Assembly: GCA_951406725.2 (NCBI GenBank)
Contig: OX597832.1
Coordinates: 46,314,001-46,378,000 of the forward strand
Source of the DNA: Octopus vulgaris
Taxonomy: Eukaryota
Direction of reading: 5' to 3'
Length of the DNA stretch: 64,000 bases
Part shown: positions 6,629 to 63,017 of the stretch, one piece after another
Layout of the letters: the number at the start of each line of letters is the position of its first letter
Position numbering within the stretch: the stretch's first letter is position 1
Made by a program: the position numbers and the translations under genes
Notes under the pieces: model-generated
Told to the model about the DNA's origin: nothing
What the model saw: the letters and a program-made list of their open reading frames with translations, nothing else
The model's database searches: none

Positions 6629-6788
6629 GACAGGCTTCTTTCAGTTTCCGTCTACCAAATCCACTCACAAGGCTTTGGTCGGCCCGAGGCTATAGCAGAA
6701 GACACTTGCCCAAGGTGCCACGCAGTGGGACTGAACCCGGAACCATGTGGTTGGTAAACAAGCTACTTACCACAGCCACTCCTACGCC
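6356..6788 (-). mobile_element. SINE family A, full length
   Basis: tRNA-like head, internal (TA)n(TG)n tract, and (GTAAAAGA)n tail on the minus strand. Confidence 0.92.
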
Positions 6789-11396: not shown

Positions 11397-11610
11397 ATGT
11401 GATCTCTTGAGCACCACCAGCAAAAATATTTTTTCCTCTGTCTTCCCTTCTTGGTATCTTTCCTTCTCCTTGTTTCCGACGAAGAGCTCCGCTCGAAACG
11501 TTAAACCCTCCTTCCCTTCTTTCCTGAGCGTCAATAATACTTTAATTGTTCCACGTCCTCGGGTTGCTGTGTTTTTTTTCTCTTTTTTTTCTGTGTTTTC
11601 TTGTTTGGAT

Positions 11611-12817: not shown

Positions 12818-13259
12818 TTAATTATAATGTGAGGTATACTTGCCATCTCAATATGGCTAACCACTAAGGGTGGGTGTTACTGTAGCTTGTAGCCCCAGGA
12901 GAACATCGTCTCAGCTGGCTTTAGGCACACTTTCTGTGCCCTTATGGTATTTGCAAAGGGAGGTCATCCTTCCCTCGTCAACCTAAGTGTTACGCACGGA
13001 CCTGAGTACAGGTCAGTACCTAGAAACTGCAGTCCGTGCGTATTACTTAGTTTGACGAGGGAAGGATGACTGACCTCCCTTTGCAAATACCGAAAGCATA
13101 CAGAAAGTGTGCCTAAAGCCAGCTGGAGACGATGATCTCCTGGGGCTACAAGCTACAGTAACACCCACCCTTAGTGGTTAGCCATATTGAGAAGGCAAGT
13201 ATACCTCACATTGTCGTGCAGTTACTGTTTATACCTCGGTCAGAGATTTAATTATAATG
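12818..13259 (+). mobile_element. Foldback insertion, Penelope-like terminal structure with 12-bp TSD
   Basis: Inverted arms 12826-13001 and 13032-13212, a 35-bp one-sided extension 13213-13247, and direct repeat TTAATTATAATG at 12818-12829 and 13248-13259. Confidence 0.8.
13002..13040 (+). ncRNA. Hammerhead-like motif (variant core) at the foldback apex
   Basis: CTGAGTA-c-AGGT cagt ACCT-a-GAAAC TGCA GTC-CGTGCG: stem II, GAAA, palindromic stem III ACTGCAGT and GUC triplet. Core position 8 is U instead of G. Confidence 0.6.
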
Positions 13260-14309
13260 ATTATAATAGATTAATAAATGCCCTTTCTTAGTTATTTAAA
13301 GTAGCAGATTGTATTGTTAAACCCACGATGTATATCGAACTGTGTTACAAGGAGTAGTATGAGAATTTATCAAACAGCTGTTACTTTTTAAAATGGGAAG
13401 TAAGATTGAAATATTATGTAATCAGTTAAATGAAGGTTTAATATTTAAATGGGAGCAACGCCAAAAATATTTTAAATTTTGTATGGTAAATATATCTCCT
13501 TGTTTCACATGATTTGAAGAATCGATGTGCTGTATCCCATGTTCAGCAATAAAATTAGTTCTAATCGAAGAAGGATTCAGATGAGAAATATTGTATTGCC
13601 CATGGTTGTAGAAAACGTTAAGAAAAAAGTGTGCTAAATCGTAGGAAAGCCATTTAGGTATTGTAAAATGTTTTGTTTCCCAAATACTCTGCTGATGAAG
13701 TAGTTGAAAGCGATAAAACGGATAACGTTTGCCTCGTGGAGAACTACTTTCCCATAAATCTGATTACTTAAAATTCAGTAAAACATTTTTGAGTGCTTTA
13801 CAGCGTGACATACAAAGCCATAGGTTTTCGTTGAATCGCGTCGGAATTGAGAAAGCAGAAGAGAAGCAGTTGTTATAAGAATGTATAAATAAAAATAAAA
13901 TTACAGGAAAGTAGAAAGGAGAAAGGGTAGAAATACGACAACAGATAGACAAATCATTTCTGAATTGAATATAGAATGTCTATAATCAATACACGCTTCT
14001 GCCGCAAGAGATATCAACTTATCGTTGGATATAATAAAGTGCTAGTCGATATGTTTCGTCCATATCTTTTGGCTTGTTTGTGTTACGTTTTTTAAGTGAC
14101 TACTGACTGTCACTAGGAGAATATATATAGATTTAACAATGTGTATATATGGACGTGTGTATATATGAGTATATGTTTATATGTAGATATGTTTGTTTTA
14201 TGGTACAGTTACACGTAAAAGCATATCTAAAATGTAGTATATTTTCAACAGCACAGCTATCTTTACATATTTATGTATATATGTATACATTTGTCTGTCT
14301 GTTTATCTG

Positions 14310-18815: not shown

Positions 18816-19210
18816 GTAGGAGTGGCTGTGTGGTAAGTAGCTTGCTAACCAACCACATGGTTCCGGGTTCAGTCCCACTGCGTGGCATCTTGGGCAAGTA
18901 TCTGCTGCTATAGCCCCAGGCCGACCAAGTACTTGTGAGTGGATTTGGTAGACGGAAACTGAAAAGAAGCCTGTCGTATATATGTATATATATGTATATG
19001 TGTGTCTGTGTTTGTCCCCACTAGCATTGCTTGACAACCGATGCTGGTGTGTTTACGTTCCCGTTACTTAGCGGTTCGGCAAAAGAGACCGATAGAATAA
19101 GTACTGGGCTTACAAAGTATAAGTCCCGGGGTCGATTTGCTCGACTAAAGGCGGTGCTCCTGCATGGCCGCAGTCAAATGACTGAAACAAGTAAAAGAGT
19201 AAGAAAGAGT
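18816..19210 (+). mobile_element. SINE family A (copy 1 of tandem duplication)
   Basis: Head lacks the first few nt; complete tail. Confidence 0.92.
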
Positions 19211-19493
19211 ATATATGTATATATATAATAATTATTATTTGAGGGAATAAAATCCAAACTTACAAGGAAAAAAATTCAATTTTAGAAATACTAAGTCAAA
19301 TTTCACACAATATAATATATATAAAATATATATATGCGCTTTTGTTATTTTTTGGTAATTTACTTAATCATTTACATTTTATTGTTATTTTAATTTTGAT
19401 ATTTCTATTATATGTAATTTTCTAGATGGTGTAATTTAATTGTTCATTTTGAAATGATAACAGGTGTTTTTTTTCTAATTTTATATATATATA

Positions 19494-19897
19494 GGCGCAG
19501 GAGTGGCTGTGTGGTAAGTATATTGTTTACCAGCCACATGGTCCCGGGTTCAGTCCCACTGCGTGGCATCTTGGGCAAGTATCTGCTGCTATAGCCCCGG
19601 GGCCAACCAAGTACTTGTGAGTGGATTTGGTAGACGGAAACTGAAAAGAAGCCTGTCGTATATATGTATGTATATATGTATATGTGTGTGTGTCTGTGTT
19701 TGTCCCCCTAGCATTGCTTGACAACCGATGCTGGTGTGTTTACGTCCCCGTCACATTAGCGGTTCGGCAAAAGAGACCGATAGAATAAGTACTGGGCTTA
19801 CAAAGAATAAGTCCCGGGGTCGATTTGCTCGACTAAAGGCGGTGCTCCTGCATGGCCGCTGTCATATGACTGAAACAAGTAAAAGAGTAAAAAAGAG

Positions 19898-19898
<1 letters not shown>
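19494..19898 (+). mobile_element. SINE family A (copy 2 of tandem duplication)
   Basis: Full head and tail; shares private variants with the 18816 copy. Confidence 0.92.
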
Positions 19899-19929
<31 letters not shown>

Positions 19930-20167
19930 AATTATTATTTGAGGGAATAAAATCCAAACTTACAAGGGAAAAAATTCAATTTTAGAAATACTAAGTCAAA
20001 TTTCACACAATATAATATATATAAAATATATATATACGTTTTTATTAATTTTTTGCAATTTACTTAATCATTGACATTTTATTGTTATTTTAATTTTAAT
20101 ATTTCTGTAATTTTCTAGATGGTGTAATTTAATTGTTAATTTTGAATTGATAAAAGGTGTTTTTTTC

Positions 20168-20247
<80 letters not shown>

Positions 20248-21374: not shown

Positions 21375-21843
21375 CTCTCTTTTACTCTTTTACTTGTTTC
21401 AGTCATTTGACTGTGGCCATGCTGGAGCACCGCCTTTAGTCAAGGAAATCAACCTCCAGGACTTATTATTTTGCCGAAACGCTAAGTAAAGAGGAGGTAA
21501 ACACACCATCATCGGTTGTCAAGCGATGTTGGGATGGGGACGAAAACATTCACACAAACATATACATGTGTATGTACATGTATACGACGGGCTTCTTTCA
21601 GTTTCCGTCTACCAAATCCACTCTCAAGGCTTTGGTCGGCCCGAGGCTATAGTAGAAGACACTTGCCCAAGGTGCCATGCAGTAGGACTGAACCCGGAAC
21701 CATGTGGTTCGTAAGCAAGCTACTTACCACACAGCCACTCCTACGCCTATGTTCAAAAAATGTGTACCAAACACGTAGTGGGACTGAATCCGGAACCATG
21801 TGGTTGGTAAGCAAGCTACTTACCACACAGCCACTCCTGCGCC
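21375..21843 (-). mobile_element. SINE family A with an extra head (21772-21843)
   Basis: Main copy 21375-21748; a second ~70-bp head follows a ~23-bp spacer. Confidence 0.9.
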
Positions 21844-22166: not shown

Positions 22167-22511
22167 CTCTAGAAAATATATAACTAAATTATATAGAAGC
22201 AATTAGTCATATTATATTTCGCCTCGCTGGATGAATCGGTTTCAGATCTATAATTTGTTATGAATAATAGTCTTTTGCTAGAATTCTATAGTCCAACACC
22301 ATACACGTCATATGAATATGTTTTCCGTAATTCAGTCAGAGCTTTGAACACAACTCCGTCATCATAATTGCCGAGAGTGTGGTATGAAATTGTATGAAGT
22401 TTCGTACAATGCGACGTGTCTGCAAGATCTCTTTTTGACAATAGAAGAAATCAACCGGGGATTGATTTTCTGTTTATTGTTTGTCTTCGCTACAAGAATT
22501 ACATAGTAACT

Positions 22512-23123: not shown

Positions 23124-23489
23124 TAGTTAGTTAGTTAATTTGGCTCAAAAGCAAATAGCAAGGCCATGTAGGGGGACTTGGAGTTAAGTACAGGGTGGTG
23201 TTCATGTAAAGAGTTCAGGCCACTTGAGGTCAAGAGAGGCTTTGAACAAAGCGGTCGTCGGCATCTTCACCATCTCGTCTGGCAGCTTGTTCCAGGGATC
23301 CGCAACCCGGACGGAGAAAGCTCCTCTCCTTCGATTGAGATGAAATCGTCGCAGGTAGAGCTTTTCGGAGTGACCCCGCAGCCGACGCTCTGGAACAGGA
23401 GTGAAGAACAGCTCTTTCGAGAGGTTACACTTTCCGCTTATGATGTTGTGAGCAAGAATGAGATCACCACGGCGGCGGCGTTTTTCTAG
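23124..23489 (-). mobile_element. 5'-truncated CR1-type LINE: ORF2 C-terminus, short 3' UTR, (TAAC)n tail
   Basis: 23489-23202 translates without stops as LEKRRRRGDLILAHNIISG...RLRGHSEKL...FSVRVADPWNKLP...LFKASLD...*, the typical CR1 ORF2 end. Confidence 0.88.
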
Positions 23490-25596
23490 TGTATAGATGC
23501 AACACTGAATTTAGATTACAATCAACCAATTACTTCATCTCGTAAATTAAAAAAAAATCTGATGTTACTACGAATTAAATTTGGGAAATTTGAGTAATTT
23601 TAGCCAATCAACAGAAACGCGGTTTTAGAAGCTCGTTACCATGACAGCCGTGCTGTGTTGTGGTTCTCTGTTTACTGTGCCACTGTTGTCTATGTTGATT
23701 TTTCACACTTGATTCTTCACACCACGAGATTCTTTCACCCGATATTTTGTTTTAATTTTTCTCTATAATTACAGATAATTACGTATTTTTTACAAATAAT
23801 TACATTTTACCAAAAATAATTACATGCAAATAATTACATATTTGTTGTGCTTTTACTCTGTGTTAGTACTTTTACATATTTTTCATTTCATATATTTTTG
23901 GGACTCATTGACTCAGATAGCTGGATTTATGATTTCACTAGGTTAATTCTATTCATAAAAATTTTAATTTGGAGTATTACTTAAACCGTTAGCTTCACAT
24001 TTCAACAGCTCGACTAAAATTTAGCCCACGTAACAGGAACAGAGAGGGATATCATGGAACAGAGGAACTATGGATGATACAGCTAATTTGACACTACTTT
24101 TGAATATTCTGCGTGAAAAAACATTTTGTTGACCAGTGTTATTCTTATCGTAGTTTACAAATCCAAGCAAGAAAACTTTAGTCTACTTTAGAGCTTTGGA
24201 GACAGACGCCCCCTTTTCACACACACACACGTACACATACATTTACTTATATATTACTGATGTTCATAAATACATGGCAAGTATATATAATACTGAAAAA
24301 GCATAAACTTAACAGAAGCAGACAAATATATTAATATAGTATATTTTTTAAATGATTAAAAAATACTATGAATGAAGAGAGAAAAGAAACAGTAAGATGA
24401 TACATGTTGATTTTATTAGGTATTTCTGTTTATTTAGAAACCTACAATGAACAGGTCAGTCGCTAAACTATAAATTTCACAGGGTACAAACTTAAAGTTG
24501 TCAACGCTTCGCTAAATGCAGAAAATTTCTGTCTCGCTATTGACGCTATCGGCTAGAAAAATCCAGTGATTTCGATTTTTAAACCTCTGCAAAGTTTTTT
24601 CTCCATTTTCTTTCTCCACAACATCATACCTGCAAAGCAATGAGATTGGCAGGCTACATTATTATGGCCGATTTTCAGATTTTTACTTCCTTTTAAAAAC
24701 TGCCTATTTTGCGAATGACAAAAACTAGATCCGTTTTCCTTGCTGAATTGTTCGACAAAATCTCTCCAAATCTCATGCCATAATCGCACAAGTTAAAGCA
24801 AACTTATATTTGGTAATGATGGCTAAATAACTAGGTATATATTTAGATATATACGATCATATTTTAACGAAACTCAGAATGAAGTGCACTGCTTTGGTAT
24901 GATCGTCATCAAACTAAATTATGCTTTCGTCACTATTTTCACATTAATATGCATATGTCAACTGCCACTGAGATAGATGACTTTGCCGTTCATCCCTCGG
25001 GATCGATAAAATAAGTAGAATTTGAGTTATCTGCTAGCTTGCTCCCTCAAAATTTCAGGCCTTGTACCTATAGTGGAAACTAGTATTTATATATTGAATT
25101 ATTTGGCAATTGGCATTATCATTTATGCCATGATATGTACATAGGTTATTTGGGAAGGAACAGAGTATGATTATAATCTTTAGTTTCGTTTACGTTTTCA
25201 TGTCTAGCTTCAAGAGTTGCACGTCTAAGCAGAGAGAGATAGAGAGAGAGAGAAAGCGTGAAAGAGAGAGAGAAACAGAGGGAGATGAAAGAAGGAAGGA
25301 GAGAAAGGTGAAGAAAGAGAGTGAGAGCGAGAGAGTGAAGTTGGGAAAGATCTGATAACTGAAATTACGTGTCGGACTTAATTAGATTAATGCCATAAAC
25401 GTGAACGTTATAAAATCATTAGATAATTTTTGAAATGTGGCGATGACAGTAAAGATTTATCAAAGCACTATGACGTGTCTCTTGATTTTCCTTTTAGCAA
25501 TAAAGAAAAACAAAATTCACATTCAAGAGATTACGTCTGCTTTTGCTTTTTTGTTTAAATCATTGGACATCTAACTGTTAATATGATTACCAACGT

Positions 25597-57364: not shown

Positions 57365-60300
57365 CGTATATGTATAGAATTACATGTATGTGCGTGCGTG
57401 TGCGTGCTTACTGATTTTATATGTCTATTCTTTTCTTATAAAATTGTGCATATCTTGACTTTAACTGTATTCTATTGTTGATGGAAATGGTCTATATCCG
57501 GTTCATCTCGATAATTTTCAGAATGCACCCGTACATTTATTTCTGCCGATACAGTATTTTTGTGACGGATTTCACTTTCGTATATTTCATATACATCAAT
57601 GCCAAAATACAGATACCAATCTTAAATTATTGAATCATATCGTTATCTCTACGTATATATATATATCTGTATTGTTTGATATTTTATATTTTGTTTTTAA
57701 TCGTTCCTATTTGGTTCTAGAATGATTTACGATGTGTCAATATAAATTTTTCTCGTGTTTCCTTGCTATGTTTAAACGACCATCAGTATAAACTTTTGTA
57801 ATGTACAAATTGAAATAGATTAAGGAATCAAACTTGAAGCTAAATTTATAGAATATATATATGTGTATACATCATGATCTCTCATGAAATACTATTCGTT
57901 GATTTTGTTGTTCATAAAGCAACGTTATCGCTGGATATTATTATTCAAGAAAAATAATTTATATGTTTCTTTTTTCACGTTTTTCTTTTCGCTCGTACTT
58001 GCTTTTAGATTTTATACTTCACAACCACGTGAGCTTGTTAGCTTCAATGTTCTTTGTGATGCCTTTTCTCTCATATATTGCATAAGCACCGTCCCCATAA
58101 ATATAAGGAGGAATTCTGCTTTAAGTACGCCATATAACACTTCGTAACTTTTTTTTTATAATTTGGAATTTATAGAAATTTTTTGCGTGTTTGTATTCTA
58201 CACACGGGATTTGACATGGCTACGAAAAAATTTTAATTTTACGAAATTAATAATTTCATATTAAACCACAGTTTAAAATACGGGCAGACTGAATTTTGGT
58301 TTTAAATCTCAGCATTAGACCATTAAATGTGTTTATGGGCAGGAAGATATTGAACCAAGTCAATATGTCAGACTGACAAACAAACAGCGAGGTGGTCATG
58401 AGATGTGGTAGAAATAAGAGCTAAACAACCCTTAAATCACGTACCAAGTATAGTTTTTTTTAATTTGTGCATAATCGTATGAATTCACTTGCGTAGAACA
58501 CAAATTCCTCAAATTTTCTGACAACTGAAAAAAATATTAATAGGTTATGAGGGCTTATATGGCGTGCTTAGAGCAGTATTCCGCCAAATATAATTTTTAT
58601 ACACAGCGAATATAAGCGAATGAACTATAGAAACATTGAAAAAAAAATATCCGCAGTGAAGAAAGAAGCTGAAAAAATGGCTCGAGCTCAGAATAGTCAC
58701 CCTGGAAGGCAGTCATAGAATCCTACGAATCACAGAAAAGTGCCTTCTCTCTGTTGTGATCATGCGTTTATAGGCGCAGCTATTGTTTAGGCCCATTCAT
58801 TTGGAGGACATTCGTCATATTTACCAATATCTGTGTTAATTAACAGGAAGAGGGTCTCTTTCTCTCCATCTTTATTTGTCTCAACAAGTGTTTATTGCGG
58901 ACGTTGAGGAAATCTCGACCGAAGCGGAAAGAATCTGTGGTTAAACATTTAAAACCAATACATCATACAGCTTTCCTTTATAATCTCCAACACTTCAATT
59001 TCTACGGTTCTTAGTGTTAAAAGCAGCCATCGTCTTTTCTAATAAGATGTCAATCAAGATCTCTAGTTACGACTGCAATTGTCTAAGTATCAAAAATATT
59101 AAATAAAACCACAGACACAAGACAGTACATACTTTCATTTACACGGAATGTGACAAGTAGCAACTTGATTTGATGGAAGTGTAGTTGCACAAAATTTCGT
59201 GTTAAATGAAATTTGAAGAACAATGTATATGACAAGCTGAATGTATATGATATGTTGTTCACACGGATCGTCACAGTAATGACGATCCTGTATTTGTAGT
59301 ATAGTTCGTAAGCTACATACCACAAATATTATGCATAGTCGATAAAATTAACATGAACTATTAATTGAAAATGTGATTATAGAAGTCGAATTAGCGACAG
59401 AAAAAGCATACTTTAGTTTTATTTTTAAAAGAAATAGCTCCATTTCTATATATCACCAATCTTTTGTGTCCAAAGCGTAACGAATCTAACTCATATTTAG
59501 GGCAGCAATGAAATATTGCATATATAGTGATCATTTATTGAAGAAGTTACAAAAAGTTTCGCGATTTACATTGATACATTTAACGGATGAGAATTCATTT
59601 GAATCATGAATATACAATATTTATACCCTTATTTCGAATATAAAGATGGCTGTTCCTTTGGGTTTGAATCTAATAACGGGTAGTAGATTGATATGCATTG
59701 TTCCCACAAATATGACACACTACGTTTTGCGTAATGATAAATAATACTCGTCGTGCCTGCTTCGAGAATTGCTAATGTCTACATGACAAGGGAATAATCT
59801 GAATGTATTGATAAGAGTAAATTAAAAAAAACATTACATATAAGCTAGTATGTGCAATATCTGTTATAGTAATATAGCAGTATCTTAGTCTACATTGACT
59901 ATAAATCAGACAAGTGAATAAAAGGGAAAGACGAAAAGTTGAATTGTGGGAGCAGAGGAACAGAAATAAAATATCAACTGTATTTTGAAGGATACGTTAA
60001 ATTGTCATTTAGTATGAGAGGAAGAAATAGTGAGAATGGCGGAAGCAAGGACAAGTCGGAAGAGTAAGTGTTAAGGGCTCGTGGTCTGAGCGAAGAGAAC
60101 TTAAAAGTAATCCCAAAGATGTTGACCAAATTTGAGGGTTTAGGAGGCGGGACTTTTAGAATGTGAACTTGAGTGAAATCTATTAATTTCAGTTAGGCAA
60201 AAGCTATCATTATTATTATTACATTTACTGTTACTGACAGAATTATTAACGCAATTAATAGTCCGTGAAGATGTTATTTCAGAATTTAGGAATAAAAATT

Positions 60301-60447
60301 GAAAACAAATATTGAAAATATATTCCATTAGATCTTGAAATCAATGAGAGAGAAAATAAAAGAATTCTACGACAGTGTTTTCTAAAGATAAAGCTTATAC
60401 GAATAAGAAATGTAAAAGCGTAAAGAGAAAGTATATATATATAAATA

Positions 60448-60546
60448 CGACAGTACATATTCTAAAATTGGAATGATACAGAGAAGGTTAGCATAGCCCC
60501 TGCTCAAGGTTGACACGCAAATTCGTGAAGCGTTCGAACATGTTTT
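60448..60546 (+). pseudogene. U6: U6 snRNA retro-pseudogene, 5'-truncated
   Basis: CAGTACATATTCTAAAATTGGAATGATACAGAGAAGGTTAGCATAGCCCCTGCTCAAGGTTGACACGCAAATTCGTGAAGCGTTC...TTTT matches metazoan U6 (ACAGAGA box, AGC triad). About 8 substitutions versus vertebrate U6 as I recall it; first ~10 nt missing. Confidence 0.95.
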
Positions 60547-60969
60547 ATAGGCGCAGGAGTGGCTGTGTGATGAGTAGCTTGCTTATCAACCACATGGTTC
60601 CGAGTTCGGTCCCACTGCGGAGCACCTTGGGCAAGTATCTTCTACTAGAGCCTCGGGCCGACCAACGCCTTGTGAGTGGATTTGGTAGACGGAAACTGAA
60701 AGAAGCCTGTCATGTATATGTATATATGTATATGTATCTGTGTGTATATGTTTGTGTGTCTGTGTTTGTCGCCCCAACATCACTTGACAACCGATACTGG
60801 TGTATTTACATCCATGTAACTTAGCGGTTCGGCACAAGAGAGCGACAGAATAAGTACTAGGCTTACAAAGAATAAGTTTTGGGATCGATTAGCTCGACTA
60901 TAGGCGGTGCTTCTGCATGGCCGCAGTCAAATGACTGAAAAAAAGTAAAACAGTAAAAGACTAAAAGAG
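60547..60969 (+). mobile_element. SINE family A, full length, abutting the U6 3' end
   Basis: ATAGGCGCAGGAGTGGCTGTG ... GTAAAACAGTAAAAGACTAAAAGAG. Confidence 0.92.
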
Positions 60970-61090
60970 ACACATACATACATATATAATACTTACATAC
61001 ACACACATACACACACACAGATATATGAATATATAATCTCATAAACCGGCATTCCTCGGTCTTCTTTCAGATTTATGATTTTTGCAAACG

Positions 61091-61159
<69 letters not shown>

Positions 61160-61736
61160 AGTGTGTTTGTGTGTATATATACATAATAAACATTTTGCCT
61201 TTTGCTTTACAAACATTTCTTGAATACCTTCCAGACTCAAACGCGTCGCAATAAAATTTTCTACAGTAATAAAAGTATAAACGAATAAGCGAATATACGA
61301 ACGAATGCCTGAATAAATAGAGAAATAAAAAAAATGAAAAAAATAAATAATTTGAACGAGTGAATAGTTAAATGAATATATAAATATAAATAAATATATA
61401 AATAAATAAAATGGTGTTGTTTATTACGCGGATCGTTTTATTCACGAAAAATCACACTCGTCTTTCTCGCTTAGATGAAATTATTTAAGTAGTAAAATGG
61501 GATACATGCTAAATTTAGTATGATCGATAATAACAGGAACAAGGTACGTCAACACATAATTTATCGCGTTTCAGTTTTCCCCATCGTCAACCTTAGTCTC
61601 ATATGAATCTATCGAATCAAAAATGCGATCTGTATTTTAATACATTTCTGTAGGACATACGCAAGTATTCAAACAACTAGGCATATTTCTTTATCACATA
61701 TTGTGTATTTAAATATTGTGTGTTTACATTTAGCGG

Positions 61737-61853
61737 TAGAGGCGCAATCGCCCGGTGGTTAGGGCAGCGGACTCGCGGTCGTAGGAGGGCGCTTTCGATT
61801 CCCAGACCTGGTGTTGTGAGTGTTTATTGACCGAAAAGACCTAAAGCTCCACG
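61737..61853 (+). mobile_element. SINE C head only
   Basis: GAGGCGCAATCGCCCGGTGGTTAGGGCAGCGGACTCGCGGTC...CTAAAGCTCCACGA. Confidence 0.85.
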
Positions 61854-62735
61854 ACATATTTTGTATGACTCAGATATTTTTAAATGGTGAGGCGTAACAC
61901 ATTTAAGAAAATAAATAAAAGAAGACAACGTTATAAGTCATTGAAATAATTTTGGCTGAGTCGAAAACGTCATTAGCATTAATTATTAAATTAATTATTA
62001 AAATGAAACAGAGAAAAGTCAGAAAACCGGATTATTTACAAAAGGAACGATGGTCTACTGTACAAATAGAAACTGTATTCGTACTGACAGATACGGAAAA
62101 ATTTCGGGATTATTACACCTCCTCACATAAAATTATTTTACCCGTAGATGGGACTTTTGAAATGATTAGAAGATGTATAGATTGTAATGAACATAATAAT
62201 AATAGAAGAGAACATCCTAGGTTCGAATTCTACACACATACTGGTAGCTTGAATTTTGTTTTCTTTAGAATTTACTGAACTCATTTTCTTTGTGAATCGA
62301 CGAGATTAAAAGAAATACTTGTGTAATCTTTATATAATTCATAAACATCGTAAATATAATTGGATGGGACTAAGATATCAAATTAAATTATTCAATTAAA
62401 ATAGATTACATTCTTAGGTATGATAAACAAACGTTGTCTTCAGCAATCAATTCTAACGTGGGGGAAAGGAAGAAAACTTTTCTTCTTTAATTTAAAACTT
62501 ATAGAAAGGAAGGGGAACACTTATATATTATTTACATGATATAATTAAAATTTAGGCGGATGCAGCGGAGGCCACGTTTGATTCCGTTAAAAGTACACGA
62601 ATATTCTCACTTTCGCCCTCACACACATACATACACAGAAACGCACCCACACACACGATTATATATTAAAGTTGGCCAGCTGCACCTCTTATATGCGTGT
62701 GTTTATCTTTCTCTCTGTGTCTGTTTTCACCTCCC

Positions 62736-62777: not shown

Positions 62778-62822
<45 letters not shown>

Positions 62823-63017
62823 CTTAGAGCGAGCTATAAACAGTAGCTGCAACACATCGTGGCGTATAGTTGCCATTAAAATATGGCTAACCCCTAAGGG
62901 TGGATGCTACTGTAGTTTGTAGCCCCAGGAGGACACCTCCTCCACCTGGCTTTAGACACACTTTCTGTGCCCTATCAGTATTTGCAAAGGGAAGCCATCC
63001 TTCCCGTCTTCAACTTA
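62771..63017 (-). mobile_element. Single-arm relative of the 12.8-kb foldback family, ending in a TAA/TTA tract
   Basis: 62821-63017 aligns to the reverse complement of about 13047-13247, including the extension segment. Confidence 0.85.

Follow-up and report, generated by a model that had tools for sequence, protein, structure and literature searches.

A U6 snRNA pseudogene joined to a full-length SINE in an octopod genome: a probable one-off template-jump retrocopy

U6 chimeras described so far

Could the capture of U6 snRNA during retrotransposition extend from vertebrates to a mollusc? In platypus, 40 of the 47 U6 copies analysed are fused to L2 or to the SINE Mon-1, the U6-L2 chimeras are nearly all 5'-truncated and 72.5% of the chimeras have target-site duplications (TSDs) of 1-9 bp; in Anolis, six U6-AnolisSINE2 chimeras are known (Doucet et al., 2015; PMC4476161). 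The chimeric junctions carry about 4-8 T (PMC6789731), and for the human chimeras, 98.3% of which lie in sense orientation, both RNA ligation and template switching have been given as mechanisms (Law and Burns, 2026; PMC13174262). In fungi, too, chimeras are known that involve a SINE, though not U6 (PMC2104539). No U6-SINE chimera from an octopus or another invertebrate was found in the literature searched, which consisted mostly of open papers, without Repbase or Dfam.

Here, we describe an octopod locus at which the oligo(U) end of a U6 snRNA copy is joined to a full-length SINE on the same strand, an observation that our analysis confirms. The original prediction had presented this pair as an analogy to the U6-LINE chimeras, which has to be corrected, since U6-SINE chimeras have already been described, namely U6/Alu, platypus U6-Mon-1 and Anolis U6-SINE2 (PMC4476161). 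What is new in the literature searched is the host, an octopod and an invertebrate, and the full-length SINE partner.

The present locus is similar to the platypus U6-Mon-1 and the Anolis U6-SINE2 chimeras in that U6 lies 5' and the SINE 3' on the same strand, U6 is 5'-truncated and the TSD is short or absent. Moreover, the SINE partners in these two species share with the octopod family, termed family A below, a structured 3' end and a short tandem tail. It differs from them in being octopod, a single case and one with a full-length SINE, the length of the SINEs not being stated in the relevant passages on platypus and Anolis (PMC4476161). The human U6/L1 and U6/Alu chimeras also have their junction at a U6 oligo(U) tract of 4 T and lie in sense orientation, and the four T of the present locus are within the range of 4-8 T mentioned above. 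However, the human chimeras contain a full-length U6, a 5'-truncated partner, poly(A), the L1 target motif and long TSDs (PMC6789731, PMC13174262). In opossum, U6-RTESINE1 likewise consists of a 5'-truncated U6 beside a SINE with no TSD, and was left unproven by its authors, but its host is a vertebrate and its SINE is RTE-partnered (PMC4476161). The SINEU elements, for whose origin a template switch was proposed, are comparable in having an snRNA-derived 5' end on a SINE-like element, whereas they form multi-copy families with U1 or U2 heads and the present locus has a single U6 copy that shows no sign of having spread (Kojima, 2015; PMC4494074).

The U6 copy and the adjoining SINE

The window is the whole 64-kb stretch of DNA that was analysed, and family-A copies are named by their positions in it. 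The features around the junction, all given on the forward strand, are the following.

60412..60431 (+), A-rich stretch like the SINE tail repeat, matching copy 19494 (its tail and the adjoining TA) at 86% over 36 nt
60432..60447 (+), left flank of U6, a TA microsatellite with ATA as its last bases, in the place of U6 positions 1-9
60448..60546 (+), U6 snRNA pseudogene (Rfam RF00026), 5'-truncated in the 5' hairpin loop, 3' end complete with T4 at 60543-60546
60547..60549 (+), ATA, either a leader at the SINE 5' end or DNA of the target site, on which the argument hinges
60550..60620 (+), SINE head, A-box-like 60560-60570 and B-box-like 60603-60612, boxes placed by eye against the box consensus
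60621..60902 (+), SINE body, aligned with five other copies, internal (TA)/(TG) microsatellite at about 60712-60769
60903..60969 (+), 3' end of the SINE, with two hairpins and an 8-mer tail repeat in 3.5 copies
60970..61023 (+), right flank, compound (ACAT)/(TA)/(AC) microsatellite, from the sequence and its tandem repeats

The U6 family (RF00026) gives the sole Rfam match at gathering level within the window, at 60439-60544 (+), scoring 83 bits where the gathering threshold is 44 (E 1.3e-19), and among the best 150 of the 214 Rfam matches no other snRNA lies in 1-60400. Model positions 1-9 fit poorly, falling on the end of the TA run with two of the five pairs of the 5' stem non-standard, so clear homology starts from about 60448, in the 5' hairpin loop. 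To judge from its sequence, the copy is a decayed pseudogene, because 5 of the 59 bases of the core (model 24-82; counted by eye from the Rfam alignment) are changed, at positions 35, 48, 56, 65 and 71, all of them strongly conserved. Where a functional U6 gene has an intact 5' hairpin and an invariant core, this copy has lost positions 1-9, has two of five stem pairs broken and carries the five core changes. The ungapped Rfam alignment stops at 60544. The last bases fit the model best, by eye, with a 3-nt insertion and one transition, and on this gapped fit the T4 at 60543-60546 is the oligo(U) tract of U6. Therefore, the Rfam match and the sequence bear out the original prediction of a U6 retrocopy with homology from about 60448 and a terminal TTTT, as well as the absence of its 5' end, the first nine model positions being replaced by the TA run.

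The family-A SINE at 60550-60969 is full length, lies on the same strand (+) as U6, starts with GGCGCAGG from 60550 and has an intact 3' end. It aligns head to tail with the copies at 6788, 19494 and 21747 in pairwise comparisons within the window, in agreement with the earlier claim that a full-length SINE of the same strand follows U6. Its 3' end folds with z = -3.41, none of 200 shuffles being as good, and includes a hairpin at 60924-60937 whose motif occurs at seven places in the window (13 strand matches vs 0.49 expected), while the repeat of period 8 in the tail occupies 60939-60966. These features suggest that 60903..60969 is likely a LINE-recognition end.

Family A has 11 heads and 7 tails in the 64-kb window and takes up 5% of its length. 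By its sequence features, that is, an interspersed and non-coding arrangement, an A/B-box-like head and a LINE-type 3' end, it is a SINE, probably of the tRNA-derived type; for the head there is no ARAGORN call and no Rfam tRNA match, and its folding is no better than that of shuffles. The head motif has no matches in viral contigs or in metagenome contigs. In one other family-A copy, an antisense frame matches a hypothetical protein of the octopod Argonauta hians with 74% identity, this being the one match for one candidate protein, which makes an octopod host likely. Copy 57289 begins inside the internal microsatellite and is uninformative. The family is not named in the relevant parts of PMC4758252, PMC4824008, PMC9115989 and PMC13295347, and consensus sequences of the OK, OR1, OR2, Deu/Nin, CORE and Meta octopus SINE families were not found in the literature searched. 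No host gene was found, as none of the 145 selected frames rises above the Pfam cut-off and only two weak rows were returned. In addition, one family-A copy has been tandemly duplicated together with its right flank (18816-19493 and 19494-20175, 92% over 512 nt), so that these two are not independent insertions.

Both outer flanks of the U6-SINE pair are TA-rich microsatellite. In line with the original prediction, no TSD can be demonstrated around the pair, where the best candidate has 12 of 15 matches and lies in the TA repeat, or around the SINE alone, where the best is 4 bp of TA repeat. A long degenerate TSD, pairing 60412-60447 with the tail region, was discarded because, among 278 control TA-run flanks, 48 attain the same gapped score against the tail of this SINE. 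In the interspersed families B and D, used as controls, five of the seven copies tested have TSDs of 12-16 bp, and consequently the search works and family A makes no long duplications. For the five family-A tests the results were 3 bp (6788), at most 4 bp (21747), 5 bp (the pair 21843/21747) and plain (TA)n (15830 and 19494). Since family A normally lacks a long TSD, the missing TSD at the U6-SINE locus is neutral. Tail-like A-rich remnants occur just upstream of two family-A insertions, namely upstream of 3137 (+) and at 60412-60431, the latter being possibly the remnant of an older SINE tail; this hints that family-A copies insert next to older tails.

One retrotransposition event or two

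In our view, the U6-SINE pair is probably a one-off retrocopy made by a template jump in a single retrotransposition event, which is the likeliest reading because of the exact junction at the oligo(U) tract, the shared strand, the equal divergence of the two parts and the low chance of such adjacency. With the number of other intact heads, seven, as a basis, an intact SINE head on the same strand is expected to begin in any one 4-nt window with a probability of 2.2e-4, and the chance per site becomes 0.9e-3 or 1.1e-3 if family A targets ATA or (C/T)ATA, respectively. Overall, chance adjacency is about 0.0002-0.001 per U6 copy. The divergence is similar in the U6 core (5/59, 8.5%) and in the SINE (34/322, 10.6%; Fisher p=0.82), although with 59 positions this comparison has low power; the SINE value is composed of 13/159 for the head and 21/163 for the body, measured against leave-one-out majorities of six and four window copies, respectively. 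The missing TSD and the missing U6 5' end do not count against a single event, since TSD absence is typical of family A here and both are typical of the platypus chimeras (PMC4476161).

The argument turns on the three nucleotides at the junction, which reads TTTT (60543-60546), ATA (60547-60549) and the SINE from 60550, on one strand throughout. ATA precedes all of the seven other family-A heads with an intact GGCG start (chance 3e-9), and 8 of 10 heads if three damaged ones are included; copy 18813, without GGC and ATA, was not used as evidence because it is a tandem duplicate of 19494. The junction ATA may belong to the SINE leader, which would favour one event. Judged by the A box, its distance to the base equivalent to the first of a tRNA is 6 nt, which would be a usual place for a Pol III start. 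On the other hand, it may be target DNA, which would favour two insertions, since a second insertion would leave an ATA at the inner junction. Several features fit the ATA as target: (TA)n surrounds two of the seven intact heads, four of six other family-A 3' ends have ATA after the tail, C or T stands before the ATA in six of the seven intact heads and a 3-bp duplication of ATA can be read at copy 6788. An ATA is found before U6 as well, at the end of the TA run to 60447; together with the TA-rich outer flanks, it can also be counted for one event. Among spurious frames from other loci, 13 of 37 matches reach the start of the SINE head and 10 of these 13, by eye, have A at -1; in these ten, A at -3 is certain in three, open in three and absent in four, and such older, diverged copies do not decide the matter. 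Consequently, the original description of a junction with no spacer, at which the SINE begins as the other copies do, agrees with the seven intact heads and holds only if the ATA belongs to the SINE. The original suggestion of a U6-SINE chimera is partly supported, by junction, strand, divergence and chance, and it is mainly the ambiguity between leader and target that keeps us from calling it more than probable.

Two separate insertions would be rather unlikely by comparison. A U6 retrocopy would have arisen in a TA microsatellite, with ATA on both sides, and a SINE preferring (C/T)ATA would have inserted, later or earlier, at that ATA. Such a history explains the ATA at three junctions, that is, to the left of U6, between the two parts and, if ACA is read for ATA, at the right end, with nothing more to be assumed, and family A does prefer TA-rich sites; however, it amounts to about 1 in 1,000 per ATA site and strand. 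It also starts from a lone U6 retrocopy with an intact T4 and no poly(A) or other tail, which is not among the common retrocopy types, whereas the vertebrate genomes contain 10 to 2,849 U6 matches, so that one chance case per genome would not be absurd (PMC4476161). According to the same source, U6/Alu chimeras are rare in human, and a U6atac/Alu pair with an extra base and without a TSD was read as two events (PMC4476161). The junction here is known from one case in a window of which family A covers a twentieth part, and a second tight head-to-tail family-A pair exists at 21843/21747, yet no age difference is seen between the U6 and SINE parts, a weak test.

A U6-headed SINE subfamily, in which the U6-SINE unit would have been copied to many loci like the crocodilian SINEU, is very improbable. 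It is established that U6 brings no internal promoter. As U6 precedes the SINE's internal promoter and its T4 would terminate Pol III transcription, the pair would not be expected to spread as a unit, and a U6 head is found on none of the ten other family-A heads in the window. The annotation of O. vulgaris does include a SINE family 'U', uncharacterised and with 19 recent insertions (13,954 bp), and a family 'U-L1', the snRNA not being stated in the relevant parts (PMC13282606, Table 1).

It is hardly credible that the pair is a chimera of the assembly, or that a decayed U6 gene was duplicated at the DNA level and the SINE joined to it by deletion: the region is microsatellite-rich and the junction is known from the assembly alone, but the flanks are mostly unique in the window (59000-60460 and most of 60960-62500), U6 and SINE each carry private substitutions, a TA run instead of the U6 5' arm lies upstream of the U6 copy, and 8 of the 24 listed sequencing runs (5 studies, 4 organism labels), one of which may be the source, contain 43-70% of the words in 59400-61085, shares that the flank alone could give and that are silent on the junction. 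In total, 20 of the 24 listed runs hold part of 59400-61085, 12 of them at shares below 0.2, which is no evidence, and no RNA holder is among the runs listed.

For the favoured single event, the following course can be proposed. The LINE reverse transcriptase would prime on the 3' tail of the SINE RNA at a TA-rich microsatellite and copy this RNA to its first base, the ATA leader included. It would then jump to the 3' U-tract of U6 snRNA and copy U6 up to the 5' hairpin loop, where it would stop, and the cDNA would be attached on the left to the flanking DNA, with hardly any duplication or none. The primary transcript of Pol III bears a 5'-triphosphate. RtcB ligation, which has been discussed for the human chimeras, needs a 5'-OH end, and with 5'-triphosphate RNA 0/26 full-length products were recorded (PMC6789731). 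A full-length SINE transcript would lack such a 5'-OH end. Therefore, of the two mechanisms named in the original prediction, a template jump fits the full-length SINE better than RNA ligation, which is less likely, with a processed SINE 5' end being possible. The pair is very likely a functionless pseudogene, and since U6-SINE chimeras are already in print, the single locus alone would be a footnote. If the single event is true, however, U6 capture during retrotransposition extends from vertebrates to a mollusc, and a SINE partner of full length is relevant to whether template switching or RNA ligation is at work, RtcB being dependent on a 5'-OH.

It is also possible, though we hold it doubtful, that the octopod LINE machinery recurrently jumps from the 5' terminus of a full-length SINE RNA onto the oligo(U) end that other Pol III transcripts carry, with 21843-21375 as a second product and the SINE 'U' families as possible relatives. 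At 21843-21375 (-), a 3'-truncated family-A head of about 70 nt is followed by 26 nt with a T6 run and then by a full family-A copy, head to tail. The outline is like U6-T4-SINE, and a weak 5-bp duplication surrounds the pair, which may be a second template-jump product or a clustered insertion. Recurrent jumping, if true, would make the U6-SINE pair the first U6 chimera described from an invertebrate, and an example from nature of such chimeras being made by template jumping, not RtcB ligation.

Other repeats in the window

Further repeats accompany family A. Copies of family B are found at 1764, 8558, 9465, 35491, 47357, 50941 and 54912, and those of family D at 22511, 56059 and 61736. Families B and D likely use a different LINE partner from family A, because of the 12-16 bp TSDs in five of seven copies, unlike family A. 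Family C, of 215 nt, occurs at 11397, 15853, 27148, 42760 and 48247, is almost always bordered by (TA)n and is possibly a TA-targeting MITE. A long inverted repeat (88% over 394 nt) at 12826-13267, with a related copy at 62802-63017, is likely a MITE or a foldback element.

The frame at 23205-23510 (-) has no Pfam match and is followed by a short TAAC repeat tail, unlike the tail of family A. In a motif, it resembles the C-terminal end of a CR1/L2-type ORF2. The repeat landscape of the window resembles that of octopus.
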